DNA from: Candidatus Latescibacterota bacterium
Lineage (GTDB): Bacteria; Latescibacterota; UBA2968; UBA8231
DNA length: 64,000 nt
NCBI GenBank assembly: GCA_965204725.1
Contig: OZ242005.1
Span: forward strand, 64,001 to 128,000
Direction of reading: 5' to 3'
The notes under the pieces were generated by a model. The model was not told the DNA's origin and made no database searches. It worked only from the letters and a program-made list of their open reading frames with translations. Shown here piece after piece: positions 1 through 14,900 of the stretch (within the stretch, counting starts at the first letter, position 1; each line of letters opens with the position of its first letter). The position numbers and the translations under genes were made by a program.

Positions 1-762
1 AACCTGCAAAAGCTGTTCCTGTACGACAACGCGATTACAGATGTAAGTCCGTTGGCCAGCCTAACCAATCTGCGCGATCTGTATCTGTACGACAACGCGA
101 TTACAGATGTAAGTCCGTTGGCTAGCCTAACCAATCTGCGCGATCTGTATCTGTTCGAAAACGCGATTACAGATGTAAGTCCGTTGGCCAGCCTAACCAA
201 TCTGCGAGGGCTGTTTCTGTACGACAACGCGATTACAGATGTAAGTCCGTTGGCTAGCCTAACCAACCTGCGAGGGCTCGGGCTGAACAACAATGCGATT
301 ACGGATGTGCAGCCGTTGGCTAGCCTGACCAACTTGCAAGTGCTGCAAGGGGACAACGCGATTACGGATGTGCAGCCGTTGGCTGGCCTAACCAACCTGA
401 TAGTGCTGTCGCTGGGCGACAACGCGATTACGGATGTGCAGCCGTTGGCTAGCCTAACCAACTTGGAAACGCTATGGCTGAACAACAACGCGATTACGGA
501 TGTGCAGCCGTTGGCTAGCCTAACCAACTTGGAAACGCTATGGCTGAACAACAACGCGATTACGGATGTGCAGCCGTTGGCTAGCCTAACAACCAACTTG
601 GGATGGCTATATCTGAGGAACAACGAAATTACGGATGTGAGTCCGTTGGTGGGCCTGACCAACCTGACCCACCTGTCGCTGGAAAACAATCCCCTCAGCG
701 CAGCATCAACCGGCACACACATCCCCGCCATGCAGGCAAACGGCGTCTCGGTAAGCTATTGA
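1..762 (+). CDS. Internalin-like leucine-rich repeat protein (5' end outside window)
   Basis: Frame open from base 1; 22-aa repeats LxxLxLxxNxITDVxPLAxLTN; C-terminal cap NNPLSAAS..THIPAMQANGVSVSY. Confidence 0.92.
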   Translation, partial: NLQKLFLYDNAITDVSPLASLTNLRDLYLYDNAITDVSPLASLTNLRDLYLFENAITDVSPLASLTNLRGLFLYDNAITDVSPLASLTNLRGLGLNNNAITDVQPLASLTNLQVLQGDNAITDVQPLAGLTNLIVLSLGDNAITDVQPLASLTNLETLWLNNNAITDVQPLASLTNLETLWLNNNAITDVQPLASLTTNLGWLYLRNNEITDVSPLVGLTNLTHLSLENNPLSAASTGTHIPAMQANGVSVSY

Positions 763-856
763 GGACATCAAGGCGATTCGCAAAGTTTTTAGTAGCCCTC
801 TGAAGTCTTTATCCGAGTTCTCATTTCCCCTAACCGCCGTAAAAAGGAGCAAAAAA

Positions 857-2449
857 ATGCCGTCGTTGAAACGAATAAAAATCAAGTCCGTGTTCATCCT
901 CTTAGGCGTCGTTGGTGCTTGGATTGGCTGCTCCGACGCCCCGCCGGTCGCCCCTCGTCCTGCGGGCAAAGCCACCTGTGCCTTGTGCGATTTCTTGGGC
1001 GACGAGAAATACACCGCAGCCGACGGGCAGGGGCCCACCGAAAGCCCCGACAGCACCCAGACCGAAGCCGAGGCCGCGACCGAAGCCGAAACCGATAGCA
1101 CCCAATCGGCCACCGTTTCGTTCGACGACGCCAATCTAGAGCGTGCGGTGCGGGAAGCACTGGACCGCCCGCAAGGAACCCTTACCACGGCGGATCTGGA
1201 TTCCCTGACCGTGCTCGACGCGAGCGATAGAGACATTCAGAGCTTGGCCGGTCTCGAACACGCAACGGCGTTGCGAGAGCTATATCTGCGGCGCAACGAA
1301 ATTACGGATGTCCAGCCGCTGGCCAGCCTGACCAACCTGCAATCGCTGTCGCTATGGGGCAATGAGATTGCGGATGTCCAGCCGTTGGCTAGCCTGACCA
1401 ATTTGCGAAAGCTGTCGCTATGGGGTAACGAGATTGCGGATGTCCAGCCGCTAGCCAGCCTAACGAACCTCCAATGGCTTCAGCTAGGGGACAACGAGAT
1501 CGCGGATGTAAGTCCGTTGGCCAGCCTAACGAACCTCTACTGGCTGGGCGTGGTGGACAACGCCCTCAGCGAACACGCCGTCAACGAACAGCTCTCCGAC
1601 TTGATGGAAGGGGGCATCCGCGTCCAAACGGAAGCGGAAACGGGAATGGCCGCCAGTTTGTTCGCCGACGCCAATCTAGAGCATGAAGTGCGGGTGGCAC
1701 TGGATCGCCCGCAAGGGACTCTTTACCCGGCAGATCTGGCTTCTCTGACCCAGCTCGACGCACGTAATAGAAACATTCGGAGCTTGGCCGGCCTCCAACA
1801 CGCTACGGCTCTGCAACGCCTGTGGCTGGCGGGTAACACGATTAAGAATGTGAGTCCGTTGGCAAGCCTGACCAACCTAGGGTTGCTACAGATAGAGGAA
1901 AACGCGATTGCGGACGTGAGTCCGTTGGCAGACCTAACCAGCTTATATTGGCTGTCGCTGTGGGACAACGCGATTACGGACATCAAGCCGTTGGCAAACC
2001 TGACCAACTTGAACTTGCTAGAGATAGGGGACAACGCGATTGCGGACGTAAGTCCATTGGCAGGCCTAACCAACTTGGATGGACTGGCTCTGAATCACAA
2101 CGCGATTACGGATGTGAGTCCGCTCGCCAGCCTGATCAACTTGGTATCGCTGCAGCTACAGTCCAACAAGATTACAGATGTGAGTCCATTGACCAACATG
2201 ACCGACCTGCGCGATCTGTATCTATCGGGCAACAAGATTACAGATGTGAGTCCATTGACCAGCATGACCAACTTGGGGACGCTGTCGCTGTCCTACAACG
2301 AAATTACGGATGTGAGTCCGTTGGTGAGCCTGACCAACTTGAGGACGCTACAGCTATACAACAATCCCCTCAGCGCAGCATCAATCAGCACACACATCCC
2401 CGCCATGCAAGCAAACGACGTCACGGTAAACTATGGGAATATTCCTTAG
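857..2449 (+). CDS. Internalin-like LRR lipoprotein with two LRR blocks
   Basis: AGGAG RBS; lipobox-like WIGC; two FxDANLExxVRxAL N-caps each followed by 22-aa LRRs; same C-cap as upstream paralog. Confidence 0.92.
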   Translation: MPSLKRIKIKSVFILLGVVGAWIGCSDAPPVAPRPAGKATCALCDFLGDEKYTAADGQGPTESPDSTQTEAEAATEAETDSTQSATVSFDDANLERAVREALDRPQGTLTTADLDSLTVLDASDRDIQSLAGLEHATALRELYLRRNEITDVQPLASLTNLQSLSLWGNEIADVQPLASLTNLRKLSLWGNEIADVQPLASLTNLQWLQLGDNEIADVSPLASLTNLYWLGVVDNALSEHAVNEQLSDLMEGGIRVQTEAETGMAASLFADANLEHEVRVALDRPQGTLYPADLASLTQLDARNRNIRSLAGLQHATALQRLWLAGNTIKNVSPLASLTNLGLLQIEENAIADVSPLADLTSLYWLSLWDNAITDIKPLANLTNLNLLEIGDNAIADVSPLAGLTNLDGLALNHNAITDVSPLASLINLVSLQLQSNKITDVSPLTNMTDLRDLYLSGNKITDVSPLTSMTNLGTLSLSYNEITDVSPLVSLTNLRTLQLYNNPLSAASISTHIPAMQANDVTVNYGNIP

Positions 2450-2466
2450 CCGAACACGCCTTTGGC

Positions 2467-2505
2467 ATCATAGAACGGCAGCATCCGACTTGGTGGGATT
2501 TATAG
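2467..2505 (+). pseudogene. Possible C-terminal remnant of a GIY-YIG (UPF0213-like) nuclease
   Basis: IIERQHPTWWDL* resembles the LIE..NP.W.DL tail of small GIY-YIG proteins and directly precedes the REP-like palindrome type often found beside them. Confidence 0.4.
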
Positions 2506-2520
2506 GAAGACACGGTTTGA

Positions 2521-2575
2521 CTGGATTCCCGCCCCGTGTCGGGGCACGGGGTGACGTTCTTGCGCGAGAATGACG
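2521..2575. repeat. REP-like palindromic element (CTGGATTCCCGC...GAATGACG type)
   Basis: ctggattcccgccccgtgtcggggcacggggtgacgttcttgcgcgagaatgacg; internal hairpin ccccgtg/cacgggg. Confidence 0.6.
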
Positions 2576-2611
2576 AAAAAATGCGTCGCCCAGATCAATC
2601 AATTTCGCGTC

Positions 2612-2908
2612 TTTCACCCACGTCCTCCACCCCAGCCCGCAACAACTCAGCCACGCTCCACGCTTGAGCGATGCAGCCGCGCGGCGCAAAAGGCGGCTCG
2701 GCGTCAAATATCTCCGAAACCGTGCCCAAGCCCGCTTCGTGCAGGTGTTCAGCAAAGCCGTCGAGGAGGGCGCGGGCCACGCTGACGATCCGCCCGGCCA
2801 TGACAACGACAGAGGGCGGTGATGTACGGCCCGATCAGCCATGCCCACACCGTGCCTTGGTGATACGCGCCATCGCGCTCCCAAGGGCCGCCCGCATATC
2901 GGGCGCAG
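2612..2908 (-). pseudogene. Diverged duplicate of the 3' end of the glycogen debranching enzyme gene
   Basis: Aligns by eye to 4382-4677 with 8 substitutions and a 1-bp frameshift insertion. Confidence 0.93.
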
Positions 2909-3298
2909 CTACCGCGCCCCCGCGATCAATTGCTTCAGGTTACTCCACGTCCACTCATAAACCTTGTCTGAGCGGCGTGCCATGGCAGGTTTATGACATA
3001 CCTTCTTGGGGCGTCCCCACAGCAAAAAATATGGCTTCTGTTCTTCTTGAGTGATGGTTAGCTCAGCAGCCACACCCTTTGCATCATGGGTATGTTCGCC
3101 GCAAATGACGATGGTAAGGTCTGTCTCACATATACGCTCTCTCACCTTATCCTTCCATTTTTCGGCGAATGGTTCCTGCAAGGAATAATCTACAATCTCG
3201 AATGGCGAATCAGGATTTTTCGCTTGGCCCACCAAAGCATCTCGTAGCTCTGCATCGTGGTCGAAGTCGAAACTGATAAAGGCGCGTTTTGTGCTCAT
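2909..3298 (-). CDS. Stand-alone TIR domain protein (MTH538/DUF1863, Thoeris ThsB-like)
   Basis: [10 protein letters not shown] start, [17 protein letters not shown] with putative catalytic Glu, YEWTWSNL end; AGGAG RBS. Confidence 0.85.
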
Positions 3299-3358
3299 TG
3301 TCTAGTCTCCTTATACACTGAGGTTGTAGTATCTGATTGATTACATTACTTCAGACAT

Positions 3359-4147
3359 TTAGCTAAGGCAAGATCGAACAGTTTCTTGAATCACATCAAT
3401 GGGAACTACCACTGCCAAACCCGAATTCTCTTGGAAAACCATTCTTCTTTGACCAGTTTGCTTGCTTATCGCAACATCTTCATAAGGGATGTATGAAGAA
3501 ACCATCCCGAGCAAAAGCGAGCTCATAATGGACTGTGTATTAGTGATACGAATTTGTTCTGGTTTGGTTACTACTGGTCCTCCACTGTTCCCCGGAAATA
3601 TAAAAGAATCAATCAGTATATTTGGGTTTCCCTGAAACCAATCTTGAATACGCGCTATAGTACCGTGACGAACGATTGTGTAATTTCGTTCCTCCCCAGC
3701 CAAACCCATTGGAAAGCCGAGGACAAAAACCCCATCGCCTTCACTGATTCGTTGGCTTGCTTCTTCCCGTAAAATTGCATCTTCATTTCCTCGAAAAACT
3801 TCAACCTCAATCCCATATTGCTCTAATATTTCTATAGGGATAGGTATAACTGCTACATCAGCATCTCTGGGGTGTGTAGTCCACCGTGCTGAGCCATCCT
3901 CTGCCTTTGATTCTATAGAGAATATCTGTGAAGGACTATTTAGGGGGCGATTAAAGCGAGCTACTATGACATCAGAACCTTCAACTACGTGGCGGTTTGT
4001 TACTAAGAAAACTTTGAAATTCTGCTCGCTATCGTTTAGCTCTTTTCTCAACAGGAAGCCTGTTGCTATATACTCAACCTCATTTTCTTCTATTGGGATT
4101 CCTAAAGCAACAACTGCGTTTAGATATTTGGGTGGGATGAGTGCCAT
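3359..4147 (-). CDS. Cytoplasmic trypsin-like (PA clan) serine protease
   Basis: ATGF, VTNRHV (His), DVAV (Asp), GFP, PGNSGGPV (Ser); no signal peptide; AT-richer than flanks. Confidence 0.88.
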   Translation of the reverse strand: MALIPPKYLNAVVALGIPIEENEVEYIATGFLLRKELNDSEQNFKVFLVTNRHVVEGSDVIVARFNRPLNSPSQIFSIESKAEDGSARWTTHPRDADVAVIPIPIEILEQYGIEVEVFRGNEDAILREEASQRISEGDGVFVLGFPMGLAGEERNYTIVRHGTIARIQDWFQGNPNILIDSFIFPGNSGGPVVTKPEQIRITNTQSIMSSLLLGMVSSYIPYEDVAISKQTGQRRMVFQENSGLAVVVPIDVIQETVRSCLS

Positions 4148-4364
4148 AGCGATTCCCCTGAATTTATCTGAAAACCTTCATGCCATAGCTTATTGATGAG
4201 TACGCCTAGCGAACAATATACCACCGCTAGGACCGCCACGCAATGGCATCTAATCGAATCGTTGCGGCCGCCGCTCACCTAGCAGCCGGGCGGTCCGAGA
4301 TCAACGATCTGCATGCGACCAGTCAAGCCCTTTATCAGATATAGGCCGATGCAGATACACAACG

Positions 4365-6314
4365 TTAGTTCCTAATTCCCTTTTCACCCACGTCCTCCAC
4401 CCCAGCCCGCAACAACTCAGCCACGCTCCACGCCTGAGCGATGCAGCCACGCGGCGCAAAAGGCGGCTCGGCGTCAAATATCTCCGAAACCGTGCCCAAG
4501 CCCGCTTCGTGCAGATGCTCAGCAAAGCCGTCGAGGAGGGCGCGGCCACGCTGGCGGCCCGCCCGGCCATGACAACGACAGAGGGCGGTGATGTACGGCC
4601 CGATCAGCCATGCCCACACCGTACCTTGGTGATACGCGCCATCGCGCTCCCAAGGGCCGCCCGCATATCGGGCGCAGTACGCCGGGTCGCTCGGCGAGAG
4701 GCTGCGGAGGCCGCGCGGGGTCAGCAAGTGTTGGTCGATCACGGATAAGACCCGCCGCGCCCGCTCGCCCTCGACGAGCGGAAAGGGCAGCGAGAGCGCG
4801 AACACTTGGTTCGGGCGGATCGCCCAGTCCGGCCCCTCGGGCGCGACCACGTCGCAGAGATACCCCCGGTCTTCGCACCAAAAGAGACGCTCAAAGGAAG
4901 CCCGCACCTCGGCCGCACGTTGCCCGTAATCGGCGCGGTGCCCAAACCTCTCGGCCAAGTGCTGCAAAATTCTGAGCGCATTGTACCAGAGGGCATTGAC
5001 CTCCACCGGCTTGCCCATGCGCGGCGTGACCACCCAATCGCCGACCTTGGCGTCCATCCACGTCAGTTGCACCCCCGGCTCGCCAGCCGCGAGCAGGCCA
5101 TCGGCATCCACCCGAATCCGATGGCGCGTACCGCGCACATGCCAAGCGGCTATGTCCGCTAGCGTGGGCCACAGCGTGCGGGCAAACTCGTAGTCTTGGG
5201 TGTATTGCAAATACTTGTAGAGCGCGACAAAAAACCACAACGTCGCGTCCACCGAGTGGTATTCAGGAATCGCCCCCGCGTCGGGAAAGCGGTTGGGGAT
5301 CATGCCCTCGCTGACGTGCGCGGCAAACGCCGCAAAAATGCCCCGCGCCTCGGCAAAGCGGCCGGTGACCAAGCAGAGGCCGGGCAGGGCAATCATGGTG
5401 TCGCGGCCCCAATCCGTAAACCAGTGATAGCCCGCGATAAGGGTGTGCAGGCCGTCTCCGCGCCGCACCAGAAACGAATGGGCCGCCCGCGCCAGCGACC
5501 CCAGCACCGGGTCGGCGGCCCAAGAAGCGCACACCTCCACCTGCTGACGACGACCGATCTCGCCAGCGAGCAGCGCGAGGGGATCGCGGCCAGCGGGCGG
5601 CTCAGTGGTCGCGAGTACGCCAACGATGGCCCCCGGGGCGAGCCGCAGGCGCAAGCGACCGGGCGTGAACAGATCCTCGCTGTGGTCGAGGCCGCGCTCT
5701 TCCTCACGCGGATATTGGAAGTTGTAGTACCAGTCTGGAGCGGCCTCCCAACACGCGCCTGGGGCGAGCAGGTGGGCGGTGGGTTGCTCTCGATAAGGGC
5801 GGTAGGCCAGCGCGTCCGCAGCCCAATCGGCCCCTAGAGCCACGTGCTCGTTGGCCTGCATCAAGTGGTGATAGTCCCGGCCGGCGAAAAAGGGGCGCAA
5901 TTCCAAACAAAGCGGGGCCGGCGCATTCACCAGCTCGTACGCGACGACCACGGCGTCCTCGCCCGCGAGCAAAGCCAGCCGCTTGCGCAACACCCACCCG
6001 TCGCCCGCGTACGTCCACGTCGGCACCGGCTCGGGCGCAAAGGCCGTCAGCCATTGGTCGCCCTGGGGGTGCATGACCCCGGGGAACATGCTGCAACTCA
6101 GCTCAACGCGGGCTTCGGGCAGGACCAAGGTCTCGTCGAGCCGCGAGAGCAGCACCACCCGGCCAACCGGCGGGCAGGTCGCCACCACCAGCAGACCGTG
6201 GTAGCGCCGGGTGTGTGCGCCGCTAACCGTGGAGGAGGCCCAGCCGCCCAAGCCATTGGTCTCCAGCCACTCGCTGTCCTGCGGCGGTCCGCGGTATCGA
6301 CGGTCCTTTGTCAT
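4365..6314 (-). CDS. Amylo-alpha-1,6-glucosidase / glycogen debranching enzyme
   Basis: [58 protein letters not shown]. Confidence 0.93.
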   Translation of the reverse strand: MTKDRRYRGPPQDSEWLETNGLGGWASSTVSGAHTRRYHGLLVVATCPPVGRVVLLSRLDETLVLPEARVELSCSMFPGVMHPQGDQWLTAFAPEPVPTWTYAGDGWVLRKRLALLAGEDAVVVAYELVNAPAPLCLELRPFFAGRDYHHLMQANEHVALGADWAADALAYRPYREQPTAHLLAPGACWEAAPDWYYNFQYPREEERGLDHSEDLFTPGRLRLRLAPGAIVGVLATTEPPAGRDPLALLAGEIGRRQQVEVCASWAADPVLGSLARAAHSFLVRRGDGLHTLIAGYHWFTDWGRDTMIALPGLCLVTGRFAEARGIFAAFAAHVSEGMIPNRFPDAGAIPEYHSVDATLWFFVALYKYLQYTQDYEFARTLWPTLADIAAWHVRGTRHRIRVDADGLLAAGEPGVQLTWMDAKVGDWVVTPRMGKPVEVNALWYNALRILQHLAERFGHRADYGQRAAEVRASFERLFWCEDRGYLCDVVAPEGPDWAIRPNQVFALSLPFPLVEGERARRVLSVIDQHLLTPRGLRSLSPSDPAYCARYAGGPWERDGAYHQGTVWAWLIGPYITALCRCHGRAGRQRGRALLDGFAEHLHEAGLGTVSEIFDAEPPFAPRGCIAQAWSVAELLRAGVEDVGEKGIRN

Positions 6315-6362
6315 CCAACCCTAAGTACTGAGTCACCTTTTCAGGTGTTGCCGCTGCGTCCG

Positions 6363-6408
6363 GGATCGAGGGCGTCCCGCCCTCGCGAGGGCAAGATGCC
6401 CTCGATCC
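6363..6408. repeat. Intergenic palindrome (REP-like)
   Basis: ggatcgagggc...gccctcgatcc outer arms with inner palindrome gccctcgcgagggc. Confidence 0.6.
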
Positions 6409-6432
6409 GGTCCGCGGTATCGGCGGAGCGGG

Positions 6433-8388
<1,956 letters not shown>

Positions 8389-8452
8389 GCGAGCTAACTC
8401 CTCATTAGGGGTGGAAATGGTCGTGCGTAGCGCAAACTAATAAGGCAGCCGC

Positions 8453-9391
8453 CTATTCGCCAAACCCCTCTATCACGTAAATCTCATCGTTGCCGTCGCG
8501 GTCAGAGCTAAAGGCGATGGAAAGACCATCCGGCGACCACGAAGGCGATCCGTCGGAGCCACTGTGGTACGTCAGGCGGCGCACGTTATCACCATTGGCA
8601 TCCATCACGTAAATATCATAGTCGCCGTCGCGATTGGAGTCGAAGGCGATGAAACGACCGTCGGGCGACCACTCAGGAGACCCGTCAATGCTACCGTCGT
8701 TGGTCAGGTTGCGCCGGTTGTCCCCATTGGCATCCATCACGTGAATCTCATGGTTGCCCGTGCCCCTAGAGTCGAAGGCGATAGAAAGACCATCCGGCGA
8801 CCATGCAGGCCCCAAATCATTGCCATAGTCGCCGCTCACTTTTTGCAGATTGCCCCCCGACAAATCCATCGTGTAAATTTTCCTAGCACCAATGACGCGG
8901 AGAGAGGTGAAAGCGATGGAAAGACCATCCGGCGACCACGCGGGAAACCAGTCGCTGCCACTGCTGTCGGTCAGGCGGCGCACATTATCTCCATTGGCAT
9001 CCATCACGTAAACCTCATAGTCGCCCTCATGGCGGTCGGAGTAGAAGGCGATGGAAAGACCATCCGGCGACCACGAAGGCTGCCCGTCCTTGCTATCGTC
9101 ATTGGTTAAGTTTCGCACGTTATCACCATTCGCATCCATCACGTAAATCTCCGTGTTGCCATCGCGATTGGAAGTGAAGGCGATAGAGCGACCATCGGGC
9201 GACCACGAAGGATCCCAGTCGCCGCCACTGGCGTCGGTCAAGCGGCGGATCTCATACCCGGCCTCATTGCTGATGCCAACGGGCGACGGCTCGGAATCAT
9301 CGCAGCCGCTGACCGCCAGTACGCAAAACGCTGAGACGGATTTCAGCACCGTCCACATCCGGCCCGAAAATACACGCTGTTCCTCGTTCAT
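8453..9391 (-). CDS. TolB-like PD40 beta-propeller lipoprotein
   Basis: Lipobox VSGC; six PxWSPDGxxIAF...EIYVMDANG repeats. Confidence 0.88.
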   Translation of the reverse strand: MNEEQRVFSGRMWTVLKSVSAFCVLAVSGCDDSEPSPVGISNEAGYEIRRLTDASGGDWDPSWSPDGRSIAFTSNRDGNTEIYVMDANGDNVRNLTNDDSKDGQPSWSPDGLSIAFYSDRHEGDYEVYVMDANGDNVRRLTDSSGSDWFPAWSPDGLSIAFTSLRVIGARKIYTMDLSGGNLQKVSGDYGNDLGPAWSPDGLSIAFDSRGTGNHEIHVMDANGDNRRNLTNDGSIDGSPEWSPDGRFIAFDSNRDGDYDIYVMDANGDNVRRLTYHSGSDGSPSWSPDGLSIAFSSDRDGNDEIYVIEGFGE

Positions 9392-9442
9392 CGTTTCCTC
9401 TCCTTCTGCGGTTATACCGCCTTATGTTGTATGGTACACGGA

Positions 9443-9498
9443 GCGGGAATCCACGCTGCAACCCCGCCCACTGGACGCCCGCTTACGCGGGCGTGACG
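9443..9498. repeat. Degenerate REP-like element
   Basis: gcgggaatcca ... ctggacgcccgcttacgcgggcgtgacg; similar to 2521-2575. Confidence 0.45.
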
Positions 9499-9564
9499 GC
9501 TATGAACTGGCAAGTGCTATGTGTCGTATGCCACAAGAGGACGCCCCTCGCACGGACGTGACTG

Positions 9565-10350
9565 CTACTTACCACCAGCCACCGGCGGCAAGGGCCACTC
9601 GTCTCCAGCCATGAAGCCGCCATCGACGTAAATGCACTGCCCGGTGACGTAATCCGAAGCGGGCGCGGCCAAGAAGACGGCCGTGCCGACCAAGTCTTCG
9701 GGCGTCCCCAAGCGATTGAGCGCGACCCGCCCTTCGCCCCAAGCGCGCATCGTGTCGTCGGCCCACATCTTCTCGGTGAGCGAGGTGAGCACAAAGCCCG
9801 GGCAGATGGCGTTTACTTGGATGTTGTGCGACCCGAACTCAATAGCCTGCCCCTTGGTGAGTTGGCCGACGGCCCCCTTAGTCGCGGTGTACACCGACAC
9901 TTTGGCAAGAGCGTAGCCCGTGGTCAGCGAGCCGATGTTGATGATCTTGCCGCCTTGGCCGCGCTCGATCATCTCGCGGCCGACCTTTTGGCTGAGGAAG
10001 TACAAGCCCTTGAGATTGACGGCCATGATCTGGTCGTAGTTTTCCTCCGAGACCTCGACGATGGGCTGGCGGATGTTCATGCCGGCGTTGTTGAACAGGA
10101 TGTCTATGGGGCCGCATTGCGCCAAGGCCGCGTCCATGCCCGCCAGATCGGCCATGTCCAATTCGACCGCACGGGCCTTGCCGCCAGCGGCCTCAATGGC
10201 GGCGACGGCTTCGTCGAGTTGACTGCGGGTGCGGGCGGCGCAGACGACCGTGGCACCGGCCGCCGCCATGCCCGCCGCCACGCCGCGACCAATGCCGCGA
10301 CTAGCGCCGGTGACGAGGGCAACTTTTCCCGCTAGCGAAAATAGATTCAC
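9565..10350 (-). CDS. SDR oxidoreductase (gluconate 5-dehydrogenase/KduD-like)
   Basis: TGASRGIG, NNAG, YTATK, DYVTGQCIYVDGG. Confidence 0.9.
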   Translation of the reverse strand: MNLFSLAGKVALVTGASRGIGRGVAAGMAAAGATVVCAARTRSQLDEAVAAIEAAGGKARAVELDMADLAGMDAALAQCGPIDILFNNAGMNIRQPIVEVSEENYDQIMAVNLKGLYFLSQKVGREMIERGQGGKIINIGSLTTGYALAKVSVYTATKGAVGQLTKGQAIEFGSHNIQVNAICPGFVLTSLTEKMWADDTMRAWGEGRVALNRLGTPEDLVGTAVFLAAPASDYVTGQCIYVDGGFMAGDEWPLPPVAGGK

Positions 10351-10417
10351 AATACACTCCTTCGTTGTGGTTGAGTTGGTTTAATGATAATCGGGGCTGG
10401 CGTTCCAGCAAGGCTTT

Positions 10418-11356
10418 TTACGTGGGTACGGAAGTGATTAGGTACTCCAATTTTTCGCTCCCCAGCGGCGCGACCTCGCAAGCGCGACCGGCCGGCACCA
10501 GCGCGGTCGCGCCCGTGCCCAAGCTGCACTCGCCCACGCGCGCCCGGCCGCGGACGACCGTCAGCGCCAAAAACGACTCTCCAGCCCGATGCTCGGCCCG
10601 GCCCCGGTCTAAGCCGCAGCCGCGCAGCACAAAGTGCTCGGATTCTACCAGCACTTGGCCCTCCAGCACGGGATACGGCACCGGCTTGGGCCGGCGTTGG
10701 GCAAAGTCAATGACCTCAAGGGCCTGCTCCCAGTGCAGGGCGCGCGGCCGGCCGTAGTCGTAAATGCGGAAGGTCAGGTCGCTCGCTTGCTGGACCTCGT
10801 ACAGGACAACCCCCCGGCACAGGGCGTGTACCGTGCCCGGCGGCAAAAAGAGCACATCCCCTTGCGCGACCGGGTAAAAGCGTACGACCTCGGCGACGCG
10901 GTCGGCGGCGTGTGCGGCGACAAACTCCGCGCGGCCCACGCCCTCGGCCAGCCCGCAAGCCACGCGGCCGCCGTCTGATTGCAGCACGTACCAAGCCTCC
11001 ATCTTGCCGCTGTCGGCCAATCCATGGCGTCGGGCGTACTCGTCGCTGGGATGCACTTGGATCGAGAGGTCTTGTTGAGCGTCGAGGAGCTTGACCAACA
11101 GGGGGAAGCACCCACCGTAGCGCACCCACACGGCCGCCCCGACCAAATCGGCGCGGTGCGTTTCCAGCAACGCGCCCAGCGAGCGACCATCCGCCGCCCG
11201 ACTCTCGCGGCCTTCGTACGCCGATAGCTCAAAGGACTCGCCAATGAGCGCGTCGTCTGGCAGGGCCTTGCCGTACAGCGCGGCTAAGCGGCGTCCACCC
11301 CACACCATCTCGCGGTAGTAGGGCGTCAAGGGAATGACATCGGGCAATGTATTCAT
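10418..11356 (-). CDS. manA: Mannose-6-phosphate isomerase type I (cupin)
   Basis: VWGG, FPLLVKLLDA, LSIQVHP, GKMEAWY, GTVHA, EVQQASDLTFRIYDY. Confidence 0.9.
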   Translation of the reverse strand: MNTLPDVIPLTPYYREMVWGGRRLAALYGKALPDDALIGESFELSAYEGRESRAADGRSLGALLETHRADLVGAAVWVRYGGCFPLLVKLLDAQQDLSIQVHPSDEYARRHGLADSGKMEAWYVLQSDGGRVACGLAEGVGRAEFVAAHAADRVAEVVRFYPVAQGDVLFLPPGTVHALCRGVVLYEVQQASDLTFRIYDYGRPRALHWEQALEVIDFAQRRPKPVPYPVLEGQVLVESEHFVLRGCGLDRGRAEHRAGESFLALTVVRGRARVGECSLGTGATALVPAGRACEVAPLGSEKLEYLITSVPT

Positions 11357-11455
11357 CGGCGATAGCTCGCCCCTAAAGTTATAGGACGACGAGGGCGAGA
11401 CAATACCGAGGCGAGATGCCGTTTTTAACCGGCTCGCAGTGACGCGCTCCCTAGC

Positions 11456-11941
11456 TTGACACCAAGCGCATCTTCTCGTTCAATCAAGTTTATCGAGAAA
11501 GCGGGCACTGGCATTCGCCGCATTCGGGACGAGGCACGGGAACAAGGCTGCCTAGAACCGGAATTCGAGTTTGACAACTTCACGCCCGTCACCTTCCGTC
11601 CCAATCCAGAGGTCCGGCCAGACGCAGATACAGAGGGCTATCGAGTCGCCGAGCAAGCGACCGGACAAGTCACCCCCCAAGATACCCCCCAAGATGCCGG
11701 AATAGCACGTCTATTAGAGGCCATATCGGGTGAGATGAACAGGAGACAACTCCAAAACGCCTTGGGCCTGAAGGATACCAAACACATCCGCAAGACCTAC
11801 CTACTCCCCGCCCTGCAAGCCGGCCTAATCGAAATGACCATCCCGGACAAGCCGCGCAGCAGCAAGCAGTGCTATCGCCTGACGCCGGCGGGACGCGACT
11901 ATTTGCACAAATCTAAAGGATGGGATCGTGGCAAAAACTGA
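11456..11941 (+). pseudogene. C-terminal fragment of a RecG-C-like ATP-binding / HTH protein
   Basis: Starts mid-domain (IEKAGTGIRRI); ends LIEMTIPDKPRSSKQCYRLT; no convincing start or RBS. Confidence 0.65.
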
Positions 11942-11993
11942 GCCTCACTACCTCGCGCTTGGAAAGAGGAGGGCCGACGCTGATGGCGGCCCG

Positions 11994-14900
11994 TTAGCCA
12001 CTACCTAGCCCCTGTGGTTGCTCCACCCCCGTCTCCCGCGCCAACTTCTCGCCCTCAATCAAGTATTCTTCCCGCATCTCGGGCGCAATCGTCCGCCAGA
12101 CCAAGAAGCGCTTGCGTAGCACGTTGAGGAAGCTGGTGTTGAGCCGCTGCCAACTCACCACATCGCCGCTTACGCGCTGCAAGTGCATCTCAATGCGGTA
12201 AATGCCCGGAATGTCGTCGGTCGGCAAGGTGCGTAAAAACACCCGCTGACTCACGCCCAAGTCGTAGGGCGCGAGCCATACCATCAGTTCCAGCAGATAG
12301 ACCGGCTGTGCGCCGCCCTGTTCCATGTGGAAATCCACGCCCTCGGTCATAAAGTCGCCCACCGATCCCTCGCCATAGGACGAGAAAACCCGGTGCAAGT
12401 ACGCGCACGATCCCAACGCATCGCCCTTGCCCAACGTAAAGGGAAAGTCAAAGCGCCAGTCGTCGCCATCGGGCGGGGGAAACTCCCAGCGCCGCGTCAC
12501 GTCGGGCACGGCCATGGCCGCGGCCTTGCGCGCCGGATACAGGGTCGAGAGCACCACCACCACCATCACGATCAAGGTCGAAAAAATCGCCGACAGCGAC
12601 GAGTAGTTGAGAAACATCCCGCCCAAGAGCGCGTAGTGCGCCAGCAGCAGCGTCGTCGTCTGTCCCACCAAATAGCCCAGCACCGCGCCGACAATGGCAA
12701 ACACGAGGGCCTCGGCAATGAAGAGCGAGGCAATGTGGCTCGGCGCCAGCCCCACCGACGAATACACCCCGATCTCGCCGGAGCGCTCGTACACCGCCCC
12801 GAGCATGGTGTTGAGCACAATGAGCGAGGCGATCAACAAGGGCACGAAGAGATTGCCAATCCCGGCTAAGGACGCCGACCCCATCGACGTGTACACCCGC
12901 ACGCGGTCGCCCGCCCCGACAAAGAGCGGCACGGCCACCCGCGACACAAATTCCTCCACCTCGGCGAGCAAGGTCTCCCGATCGGCAAAACCGGCGATGG
13001 CAATGGAGCGCAGCGTCCCCCCCAAATCGACGACCTGCTGGTACGGCAAGAACGCCACGTTGTTGGCCAGCAGGTGGGTAAAGGTCTCAATCGCGGCCGT
13101 GTCCATCAGGCGCGGGTCTAAGCCGGCCATTTCCTCCATCTTCTTGGCCTCGGCGACCGTATCGACCGGCATCGGACTCTCGTTGTCCAAGTCGCGCAGC
13201 CGGTCGATGGCCTCGCCGTCGATCAAGCCAATGACCCGATAGGACTGCCCCATCAGACCAATGTGGGCCGTGCCCACATCCTCCGGGCCGATGCCCAAGA
13301 TCGCCGCCATGGCGACCGGCAGGATGCACACGTCGCGCTCGCCGGCCGCAAACCAGCGGCTCGCCGGTCCCACCAACCGCTCTGCTAGCCCCATCAGCGC
13401 CCCCTCGCCCGGGGTCACCCCGAGGAGGGCCGAGGCAAAGCTCTTTTTTTGCGCCGACTTGTGTTCAATGTCGATATAGGCCCGCTCGCCAATGACCTTG
13501 GAGGTCACCCACGACCTCGGCAGCACCTGCGCTCGGTCGCCAAAGGCGCTCTCCGCATAATCGAGCACCGATAGCTGCAAGCCCTTCCAACCGCGGTCGC
13601 GCAGCAGGGCGCCCTCGTAGCTGGGCGCATTCGAGCGGGGGATCTGATAGAACTTGAGATAGCTCTGCACCGAGGTGAAGGCTTGGGCGGTAAAGGTCAA
13701 AAGCGTCAGGGTGATCACCGTCAGGGCGGTGCGCAACTTGCGCTTGCGGAGGTTGGAAATCCCCAGCGACGCGGCCGCGGCCGTGGCACTGAGGCGACCG
13801 ATGTCCGCTTCGTGGACGCCGGCTGCGGCCCGCTTGCGCTGACCAACGGCGCGGGTAAAGCGGCCCAGAATCATCAGCAGCGCGGTGCCGCCGATGGCGA
13901 AGATGACAAAGGCCAAAAAGATGATGTACGGCGACGAACTCAGCTTAAAGGCCGGGTGGATAAAGCGCATGACGAGGAAGATCGCCAAAAAGAAAAACGC
14001 CGCGCCGGCCACTTGCCGGCGGATGTCGGCAAAGCCGAAGAACAGCCGCTCGCAGCAAAACGAAAACGGCAGCAGCAGCGCGAAGTAAAAGATCACCCCA
14101 TAGACCGTATCGTCCGCGGTCGATTTGATGTCTGGGTAGCCCCGCCCTTCGAGGCCCCACGCCTTGCGCGTGGCCCGCTTGAACTCGCTGTACCGCCGCG
14201 CCTGCAAGTGCTCTTCGGCCTCCAACAAAGCCAAGCGCGCCTCTTCGTGCAGGCGCATGAACTTGTCGTTGCGCACCCCGTAGCGCGCCAACTGCTTGAT
14301 CCGCACGTCGTCGAGGACCCATAAGTCTTGCGCGGCCGCGTACCCAGGGCGCAAGACCACGCCTTGATCCACGAGATAGCCGCGCCCGAGGGCCTGCTTG
14401 ATGGTCTGCTCATCCACGTCGGCCGGGCGCACCGGCTCGGCCACCCATTCGGCCGGCGCGCCGCTCAGCAGGTAGCGCACGCCGAACAGGCTCGTGCTCA
14501 TCAGGGCTTTGACCCGAGTGCCGGGCCGGGCGTACACCACCGCAGCGAGGGTTACTTTGCCCTCCTCATTGCTCTGCTTTTCGACGAAATCGGCCCCCCA
14601 CGACTGGGGCACGCCGTCGCGCTCGTCGAGGACGGTCACGTGGTCCAAGACCGACAGGTAGCGCGAGTCCACGGTCTCAAACAGACTCAACGCTCGGCAT
14701 TCAAAGAGCACTTGCAGCATCTCGTTTTCCCACCAGCCCCACGGATGCACGGTCGGGTACGTCTCGTCGCCTTCTTGGCCCAAGTCCGGCGCGGAAATAA
14801 TCGCCCCGTAGGGATCGAGCTCGTACGCGCGGATGGTGTTGTCCAGCTTGTTGCGCATGATGTCGAAGTGGAAGCGGCCCGCGTCGTCGGCCTCTTGCGC

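Follow-up and report, generated by a model that had tools for sequence, protein, structure and literature searches.

Does a trypsin-like protease encoded directly beside a stand-alone TIR protein form a two-gene anti-phage system with it, or do the two genes merely share a site? The question is raised by an islet at positions 2909-4147 of a 64,000-nt stretch of contig OZ242005.1 (assembly GCA_965204725.1, Candidatus Latescibacterota bacterium, positions 64,001 to 128,000 of the forward strand), hereafter called the window. The original prediction, made from the letters alone, proposed a Thoeris-like module in which the serine protease is the effector. Much of what it said about the components stands, including the ThsB-type TIR, and is joined by a protease match to the anti-phage candidate family PDC-S45, by caspase-linked relatives of the TIR and by the foreign-looking character of the islet; what did not stand is the co-occurrence of the two families. 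We give an about even chance to the explanation that we favour, in which the protease and the TIR are two independent defence-island passengers and the TIR is functional despite lacking an effector beside it.

Both genes are intact, lie on the minus strand and were taken from the list of open reading frames (ORFs). The upstream gene (3359-4147) encodes a trypsin-fold serine protease of 262 aa, presumably of the cytoplasmic type, and the downstream gene (2909-3298) a ThsB-type short TIR of 129 aa. The two are separated by a spacer of 60 nt (3299-3358), with AAGGAG just 5' of the TIR ATG. The GC content of the islet is 0.42-0.47 (3001-4400) vs 0.61-0.69 in the adjoining segments on both sides, and the ORF list and the GC profile together confirm what had been described as two same-strand genes 60 bp apart in an AT-richer cassette. 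A scan of 2500-4500 returned no terminator-like site, so none lies in the protease-TIR spacer, and no sigma-70-type promoter on the minus strand, the scan being blind to other promoter types; Rfam gave no match in 2300-4800 with the threshold set at E 0.1. The non-coding leader 5' of the protease gene (4148-4364, minus strand), which in an alignment is mostly conserved in the same-genus locus L001, is presumed to be the promoter region.

The downstream protein is a genuine short TIR of the ThsB/Thoeris type, as had been proposed. It matches Pfam ThsB_TIR (E 4.8e-8, 33.8 bits, cut-off 21.2), and a fold comparison of its model (pLDDT 80.9) puts 8fz9, a TIR of Bacillus cereus, first (TM 0.71, 24-25% identity), ahead of ThsB structures (EcThsB and ThsB-Tad3). 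The glutamate that the original prediction had picked out in the GVAAEL motif, E79, is invariant across 34 of 34 homologues and is aligned with a Glu of 8fz9, the sole PDB sequence match; going by other TIR proteins, this residue is the putative catalytic one. Homologues at 73-79% identity are spread, by label, across several phyla, being found in metagenome-assembled genomes (MAGs) labelled Dehalococcoidia, Alphaproteobacteria, Nitrospirales and Binatia, and nearly all of them are 127-131 aa long. Only the ribosome-binding site is conserved in the leaders 5' of the TIR gene at 14 loci, an observation that argues neither way.

By its motifs and its modelled fold, the upstream protein is a PA-clan (chymotrypsin-fold) serine protease, with His, Asp and Ser in that order on a double beta-barrel. 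The triad reported for it is indeed intact, H53, D97 and S188 (the Ser in GNSGGP) being invariant in 30 of 30 aligned homologues. The protein matches Pfam Trypsin_2 (E 1.1e-12, 49.3 bits, cut-off 27.6) as well as Pfam Trypsin, and the PADLOC profile PDC-S45 fits it much better (E 1.7e-31, 107.2 bits), its residues 22-223 aligning with positions 33-241 of the 293 in the profile. PDC-S45 is a phage-defence candidate in PADLOC-DB v2 and is modelled there as a single gene. The AlphaFold model (pLDDT 76.9) is a plain chymotrypsin fold with no second domain, and the Foldseek matches to the protease domains of thrombin, DegS, MucD, Spl and HtrA (probability 1.00) are generic, with TM values of 0.46-0.56. 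As to the caveat that the protease has no obvious ligand-sensor domain, the check for a signal-binding domain gave Trypsin_2 and Trypsin alone in Pfam and one chymotrypsin fold in the model, within which a binding pocket may yet lie. The N-terminus (MALIPP.YLN), which is conserved among homologues, is modelled within that fold. Four residues (YGHP-like) present in all 29 other aligned homologues are missing from the window protease, and two of those positions are at least 90% conserved.

Co-occurrence of the two families elsewhere, by which the proposed module was to stand or fall, was mostly not found: a Trypsin_2 gene lies upstream of the TIR in 4 of 80 TIR loci, and a TIR adjoins the protease in none of 63 metagenome contigs that extend far enough downstream and none of nine further genomes. 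The TIR loci come from a scan of a genome collection that yielded 207 confirmed TIR-encoding stretches, the best 80 of which were used for the neighbourhood counts. The protease is not a regularly co-occurring effector next to the TIR in this set. In 68 of the 80 loci, an 8xMP gene (Pfam PF24838, located by tblastn) lies on the same strand as the TIR gene, upstream of it in 3 of these, and it mostly begins no more than 40 nt past the TIR stop. A Peptidase_C14 caspase gene follows the TIR in five loci, as in the type IV Thoeris layout, and seven have neither 8xMP nor caspase, three of these seven being from the genus of the window. The four loci with a Trypsin_2 gene upstream are L001, L004, L018 and L021, of which L001 is the same site in the same genus, while the L021 protease is distant and only 28% identical. 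The upstream genes are highly varied, with HsdS in 10 of 74 scanned and, elsewhere, KAP NTPase, DUF2806, SIR2_2, PIN_4, KwaB, Mrr, Vsr or a second TIR. Downstream ORFs of 1,050-1,212 aa proved to be the type I restriction subunit HsdR in 9 of 9 tested, TIR-8xMP preceding HsdR in these. The TIRs of this TIR-8xMP module are 60-77% identical to the window TIR and mostly 127-131 aa long; those linked to caspases in genomes are 57-59% identical, and plasmid TIRs (47-58% identical) adjoin 'caspase family' genes or a gene for a 183-aa hypothetical protein. Within positions 1-12000 of the window, tblastn found no match to 8xMP or to caspase queries from L066, L076 and L080, and the islet stops exactly at the TIR stop codon, where 8xMP starts in other loci.

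The TIR-8xMP module (L004-L079, e.g., L004:6001-10044 and L036:4624-10028) is typically inserted into type I restriction operons, with hsdS on one side and hsdR on the other. The MAGs that carry it bear the labels of many bacterial phyla and, in one case, of Thaumarchaeota; we found no paper on it. A type I restriction HsdR of 1212 aa (L034:6876-10511) has a Peptidase_S24-like insert (residues 346-465) that separates the N-terminal nuclease part from the ATPase part.

The protease family gives a similar picture when viewed from its own side. Among 80 metagenome loci with homologues of 40-50% identity, 63 of which have at least 450 nt of downstream sequence, none has a TIR or 8xMP gene beside the protease, and 72 neighbouring ORFs of metagenome proteases, when scanned, gave no shared family and no TIR. 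The genome sampling drew on the phylum and on the order to which the L004 genome belongs, with 401 genomes from each, and none of the nine newly found protease-bearing Chloroflexota genomes has a TIR or 8xMP gene within 1.5 kb of the protease. The second protease paralogue of the window genome is solo. Viral contigs, searched with the protease alignment, gave six weak loci, only one of them near full length (43%) and solo without a TIR, and a tblastn search of plasmids with the protease at E up to 1e-10 gave no match. Outside the genus, six of 76 TIR-bearing genomes have a protease homologue (E 1e-15 or better), adjacent to the TIR in two (L004 and L018), where the order is protease, TIR, 8xMP and then the gene for the type I restriction R-subunit (HsdR). 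Solo proteases also stand directly after HsdS (L227, L238, L241 and L242), and L238 reads HsdS-protease-HsdR; thus, both families use the same restriction-operon slot, which can explain their rare adjacency. In two homologues from the Dehalococcoidia order, L228 (G638:C46:47136-47705) and L242 (G888:C1:2261557-2262348), internal stops (TAG, TAA) mark the protease genes as likely pseudogenes.

These counts bear on a true Thoeris-like pair, in which a nucleotide signal made by the TIR on sensing infection would bind and activate the adjacent protease, cellular proteins would be cleaved and the infection would abort. Such a pair would stand to serine proteases as type IV Thoeris does to caspases, with the signal bound within the protease fold, and L004 and L018 would then be dual-effector operons (protease plus 8xMP). 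The interchangeable effectors of the TIR family (8xMP in 68 and caspase in five of the 80 loci, with caspases again on plasmids) and the two-effector operons that a recent TIR survey records for types VII and VIII (10.64898/2025.12.03.692087) are consistent with it, as are the protease-then-TIR order on one strand that recurs in the genus, in L004 and in L018, the short spacer free of terminator-like sites, and the strong purifying selection, described below, on an effector-less TIR beside the protease. Most proteases of the family, however, have no nearby TIR and most TIRs no protease; the solo proteases L222, L227 and L238-L241 are about as close as that of L004 (50-55% identity), and the shared restriction-operon slot can account for the adjacency. 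The protease also has no domain beyond its fold, whereas the type IV caspase has a C-terminal domain for which signal binding is proposed by its authors (10.1101/2024.10.24.620036). We hold such a pair to be unlikely. In a FastTree tree of the protease family, the TIR-linked members fall in two clades, that of the window and that of L004 and L018; most rows in those clades have no known context, and whether the linkage to the TIR is old is a point on which the tree speaks neither for nor against.

The flanks of the islet show how it sits in this genome. The islet is bounded by a direct repeat of 297/296 nt (2612-2908 and 4382-4677), the copies of which differ by eight mismatches and one indel. 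The repeat is the duplicated 3' end of the adjoining glycogen-debranching (GDE) gene, which is intact on the minus strand at 4365-6314 (Pfam GDE_C and GDE_N). Copy B (4382-4677, minus strand) is the in-frame 3' part of this gene, whose present end is a new tail of 17 nt with a stop codon (4365-4381, minus strand; reading EKGIRN-stop) that differs from the old tail (ERREID-stop) retained after copy A. Copy A (2612-2908, minus strand) is a displaced partial GDE 3' end that abuts the TIR stop codon; it has a 1-nt insertion absent from all relatives and is a decaying duplicate. Since the two copies are nearly alike and the GDE genes of relatives reach at most 91% identity to either, the duplication arose within this lineage. 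One possible mechanism is a single crossover of a circular molecule carrying the GDE 3' end and the islet, which would give this layout. Between the repeats the sole ORFs of more than 100 aa are the protease and TIR genes, with no recombinase or transposase of the kind that a self-mobile integrative element would carry, and no inverted repeats were found around the islet.

An assembly artefact was considered as the source of this arrangement and rejected, as contigs from public runs, which may include the source sample, bridge the flank, repeat copy A and the TIR gene. A contig of 585 nt spans 2612-3196, from repeat copy A into the TIR, and the islet together with 30 nt of the repeat on either side (2879-4411) is likewise covered, so the junctions were not invented by the assembly; contigs this short are also compatible with a mixture that includes a circular form. 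Just beyond copy A lies a GC-rich interspersed repeat of ~57 nt (2519-2575) with 105 genome candidates at first look; all 40 of the candidates that were scored are 90-98% identical, and its fold energy is ordinary (z -0.31). At this repeat the depth of the public-run contigs jumps ~20- to 150-fold, with many loose ends.

Close copies of the protease occur in four of 31 genomes of the genus (the window genome included), in all four directly after the GDE gene. L001 comes from a MAG that bears the label Candidatus Latescibacterota; there the islet begins ~16 nt past the GDE stop and no duplication is present. All four islet-bearing genomes have an intact TIR ORF and a protease match free of internal stops, the latter being cut at contig ends in G125 and G123; both genes are on one contig in the window and in L001 and lie at contig ends in the other two. 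These other two are short-read assemblies whose contigs break in or beside the islet, so that one contig starts with the TIR and another ends with the protease (L002:97-483, L003:245-631, L171 and L172), and such breaks fit strain heterogeneity or repeats at a hotspot. The site is variable in other respects: among 16 complete relatives, the DNA after the GDE gene holds a gene for a TonB-dependent receptor in eight (in one of these after two small ORFs), a different three-gene island of ~52% GC in seven (L204, L205, L206, L211, L212, L214 and L218) and a gene for a 1927-aa Ig-domain protein in one. The ~52% GC island, scanned in L204 and in parts of L205, with its other members inferred from matching ORF sizes and GC, encodes in L204 (263-4208) proteins of 426 and 548 aa with no Pfam match and a 350-aa Trypsin_2 protease. 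In L205 a Tubulin_2 gene and a DDE transposase gene lie close to the post-GDE site. These observations support the islet being foreign-looking cargo at a variable hotspot. On the far side of copy A, convergent with the islet, are two genes for leucine-rich-repeat proteins on the plus strand (1-762 and 857-2449), with many near-identical NAITDVSPLASLTNL repeats (LRR_4, E 7.8e-62); the repeats are of a eukaryote-like type, and the stretch is found in runs labelled sponge metagenome.

Whether the islet still has a role can be judged from selection. Between the window and same-genus copies, the ratio of nonsynonymous to synonymous divergence (dN/dS) is 0.07-0.09 for the TIR (dS 0.30-0.77), 0.27 for the protease (dS 0.20) and 0.16 for the flanking GDE gene (dS 0.28). 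The TIR and the protease are thus both under purifying selection, the TIR being more constrained than the flanking GDE gene, and such a ratio despite the lack of an effector beside it indicates that the TIR has a job here. This evidence bears heavily on the view that a protease-TIR-8xMP locus was truncated, leaving a TIR without function, and that the islet has hitch-hiked into its place with no present role. The islet does end at the TIR stop, where 8xMP begins elsewhere, the window protease has lost four residues that include conserved positions, and copy A of the flanking repeat is decaying; against this stand the ratios for both genes across dS 0.2-0.77 and the reading frames preserved in all four islet-bearing genomes, and we regard a functionless remnant as very improbable.

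In a third arrangement, the partners would regulate one another by contact in the manner of a toxin and antitoxin, the protease processing or degrading the TIR or the TIR restraining the protease, until infection releases one of them. Trypsin-like proteases elsewhere in defence cleave and thereby activate a partner proenzyme, as two reports describe for Hachiman, AVAST or Canu-type systems (PMC12799240; 10.1101/2025.09.03.673762), and the tight spacing on one strand and the retention of both genes at the genus site would suit such a pair. Each family nevertheless works apart from the other almost everywhere, and the TIR is extremely conserved irrespective of its upstream neighbour, which leaves contact-based regulation doubtful, with only a slim chance of being right. 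A complex prediction for the protease and the TIR returned a score of 0.00 ('no answer') and is evidence neither way.

The explanation that we favour, of two independent passengers, would run as follows, each biochemical step in it being one that we infer. The protease and the TIR would have arrived together as separate anti-phage-type passengers and would not constitute a dedicated two-gene system. First, the PDC-S45 protease, often a guest between hsdS and hsdR, would act alone as a protease triggered by infection. Second, the TIR, on sensing infection, would use its conserved Glu to convert NAD+ to an ADP-ribose-derived signal or would simply consume NAD+, as its homology suggests. The fragment that landed in the hotspot after the GDE gene would have ended exactly at the TIR stop codon, which is why the effector of the TIR is missing. 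Finally, since selection keeps the TIR although its effector is missing, it most likely works without a linked one: it would be either a NADase in its own right or an additional sensor whose signal goes to effectors encoded at other loci of the genome. An effector acting in trans is possible, as the window genome has two further complete TIR/8xMP loci (8xMP at 4.15 Mb and 4.76 Mb of C1). In the first (L167, G000:C1:4152077-4155346) the order is TIR, a 176-aa protein with two transmembrane segments that is SLATT-like by eye, TIR and 8xMP, and in the second (L166, G000:C1:4755409-4758675) it is TIR, 8xMP, TIR and TIR.

Several observations weigh against this explanation. The TIRs of those two 8xMP loci belong to another subfamily (FISHSW type vs the FISFDFDHD type of the islet), so that compatibility of the signal in trans is unproven, and no 8xMP match was obtained in G125, a relative with the islet that is 93% complete. 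This strongly constrained, effector-less TIR has no conserved neighbour other than the protease, and the two adjacent pairs found outside the genus share order and strand, protease then TIR. In addition, the context counts cover homologues other than the ~110 closest ones from the protein search (P0009-P0120).

The distinction matters for how such loci are read. Should the pair be functional, a serine protease would for the first time join the known Thoeris effectors, and a minimal chymotrypsin-fold enzyme would prove to be activated by a nucleotide. If it is mere juxtaposition, it cautions that adjacency in defence hotspots and in the guest slots of restriction operons readily mimics a 'system', and it offers a clean case of a Thoeris-type TIR retained by selection without a linked effector, which prompts one to ask whether a TIR sensor can work by itself or with effectors in trans. 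Either way, the locus belongs to a very conserved short-TIR family that swaps 8xMP and caspase partners, mainly inside type I restriction operons.

Among known systems, the nearest in layout is type IV Thoeris, which combines a short TIR ThsB with a caspase-like protease through the signal N7-cADPR (Rousset et al., 10.1101/2024.10.24.620036). As in that system, a stand-alone short TIR gene adjoins a protease gene on one strand in the islet, and relatives of the window TIR sit directly upstream of Peptidase_C14/caspase genes. Unlike in type IV, the islet protease is a PA-clan trypsin-fold enzyme, is encoded upstream of the TIR and has no extra C-terminal domain, its family and that of the TIR do not regularly co-occur, and the caspase neighbour is absent. 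A second comparison is with the TIR-8xMP module (PF08937 plus PF24838), whose TIRs resemble that of the window at the identities given above, but the islet has no 8xMP.

The protease itself is best compared with PDC-S45, which it matches over most of its length and the members of which stand solo in variable or defence contexts, whereas a TIR gene follows the islet protease. We found no experimental test of PDC-S45 in the literature, and one report lists it in prophages (PMC12429752). The proteases of Hachiman, AVAST or Canu-type systems are likewise trypsin-fold enzymes in an anti-phage context, but they are paired with a nuclease or MBL protein, for which no gene is present in the islet. We found no described pair of a TIR and a trypsin-fold protease in the literature; the word 'trypsin' is absent from the main text of the recent TIR survey, the Figure 1C or Table S1 of which may list a serine protease or 8xMP (10.64898/2025.12.03.692087). 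That survey (Yirmiya et al., 10.64898/2025.12.03.692087) sets out the new Thoeris types V-XI together with 29 putative ones and reports effector swapping that includes membrane proteins, genomes with multiple ThsB proteins and the two-effector operons noted above. The TIR clusters of the survey and the TIR family of the window follow the same logic, in which the TIR is kept and its effectors are swapped.

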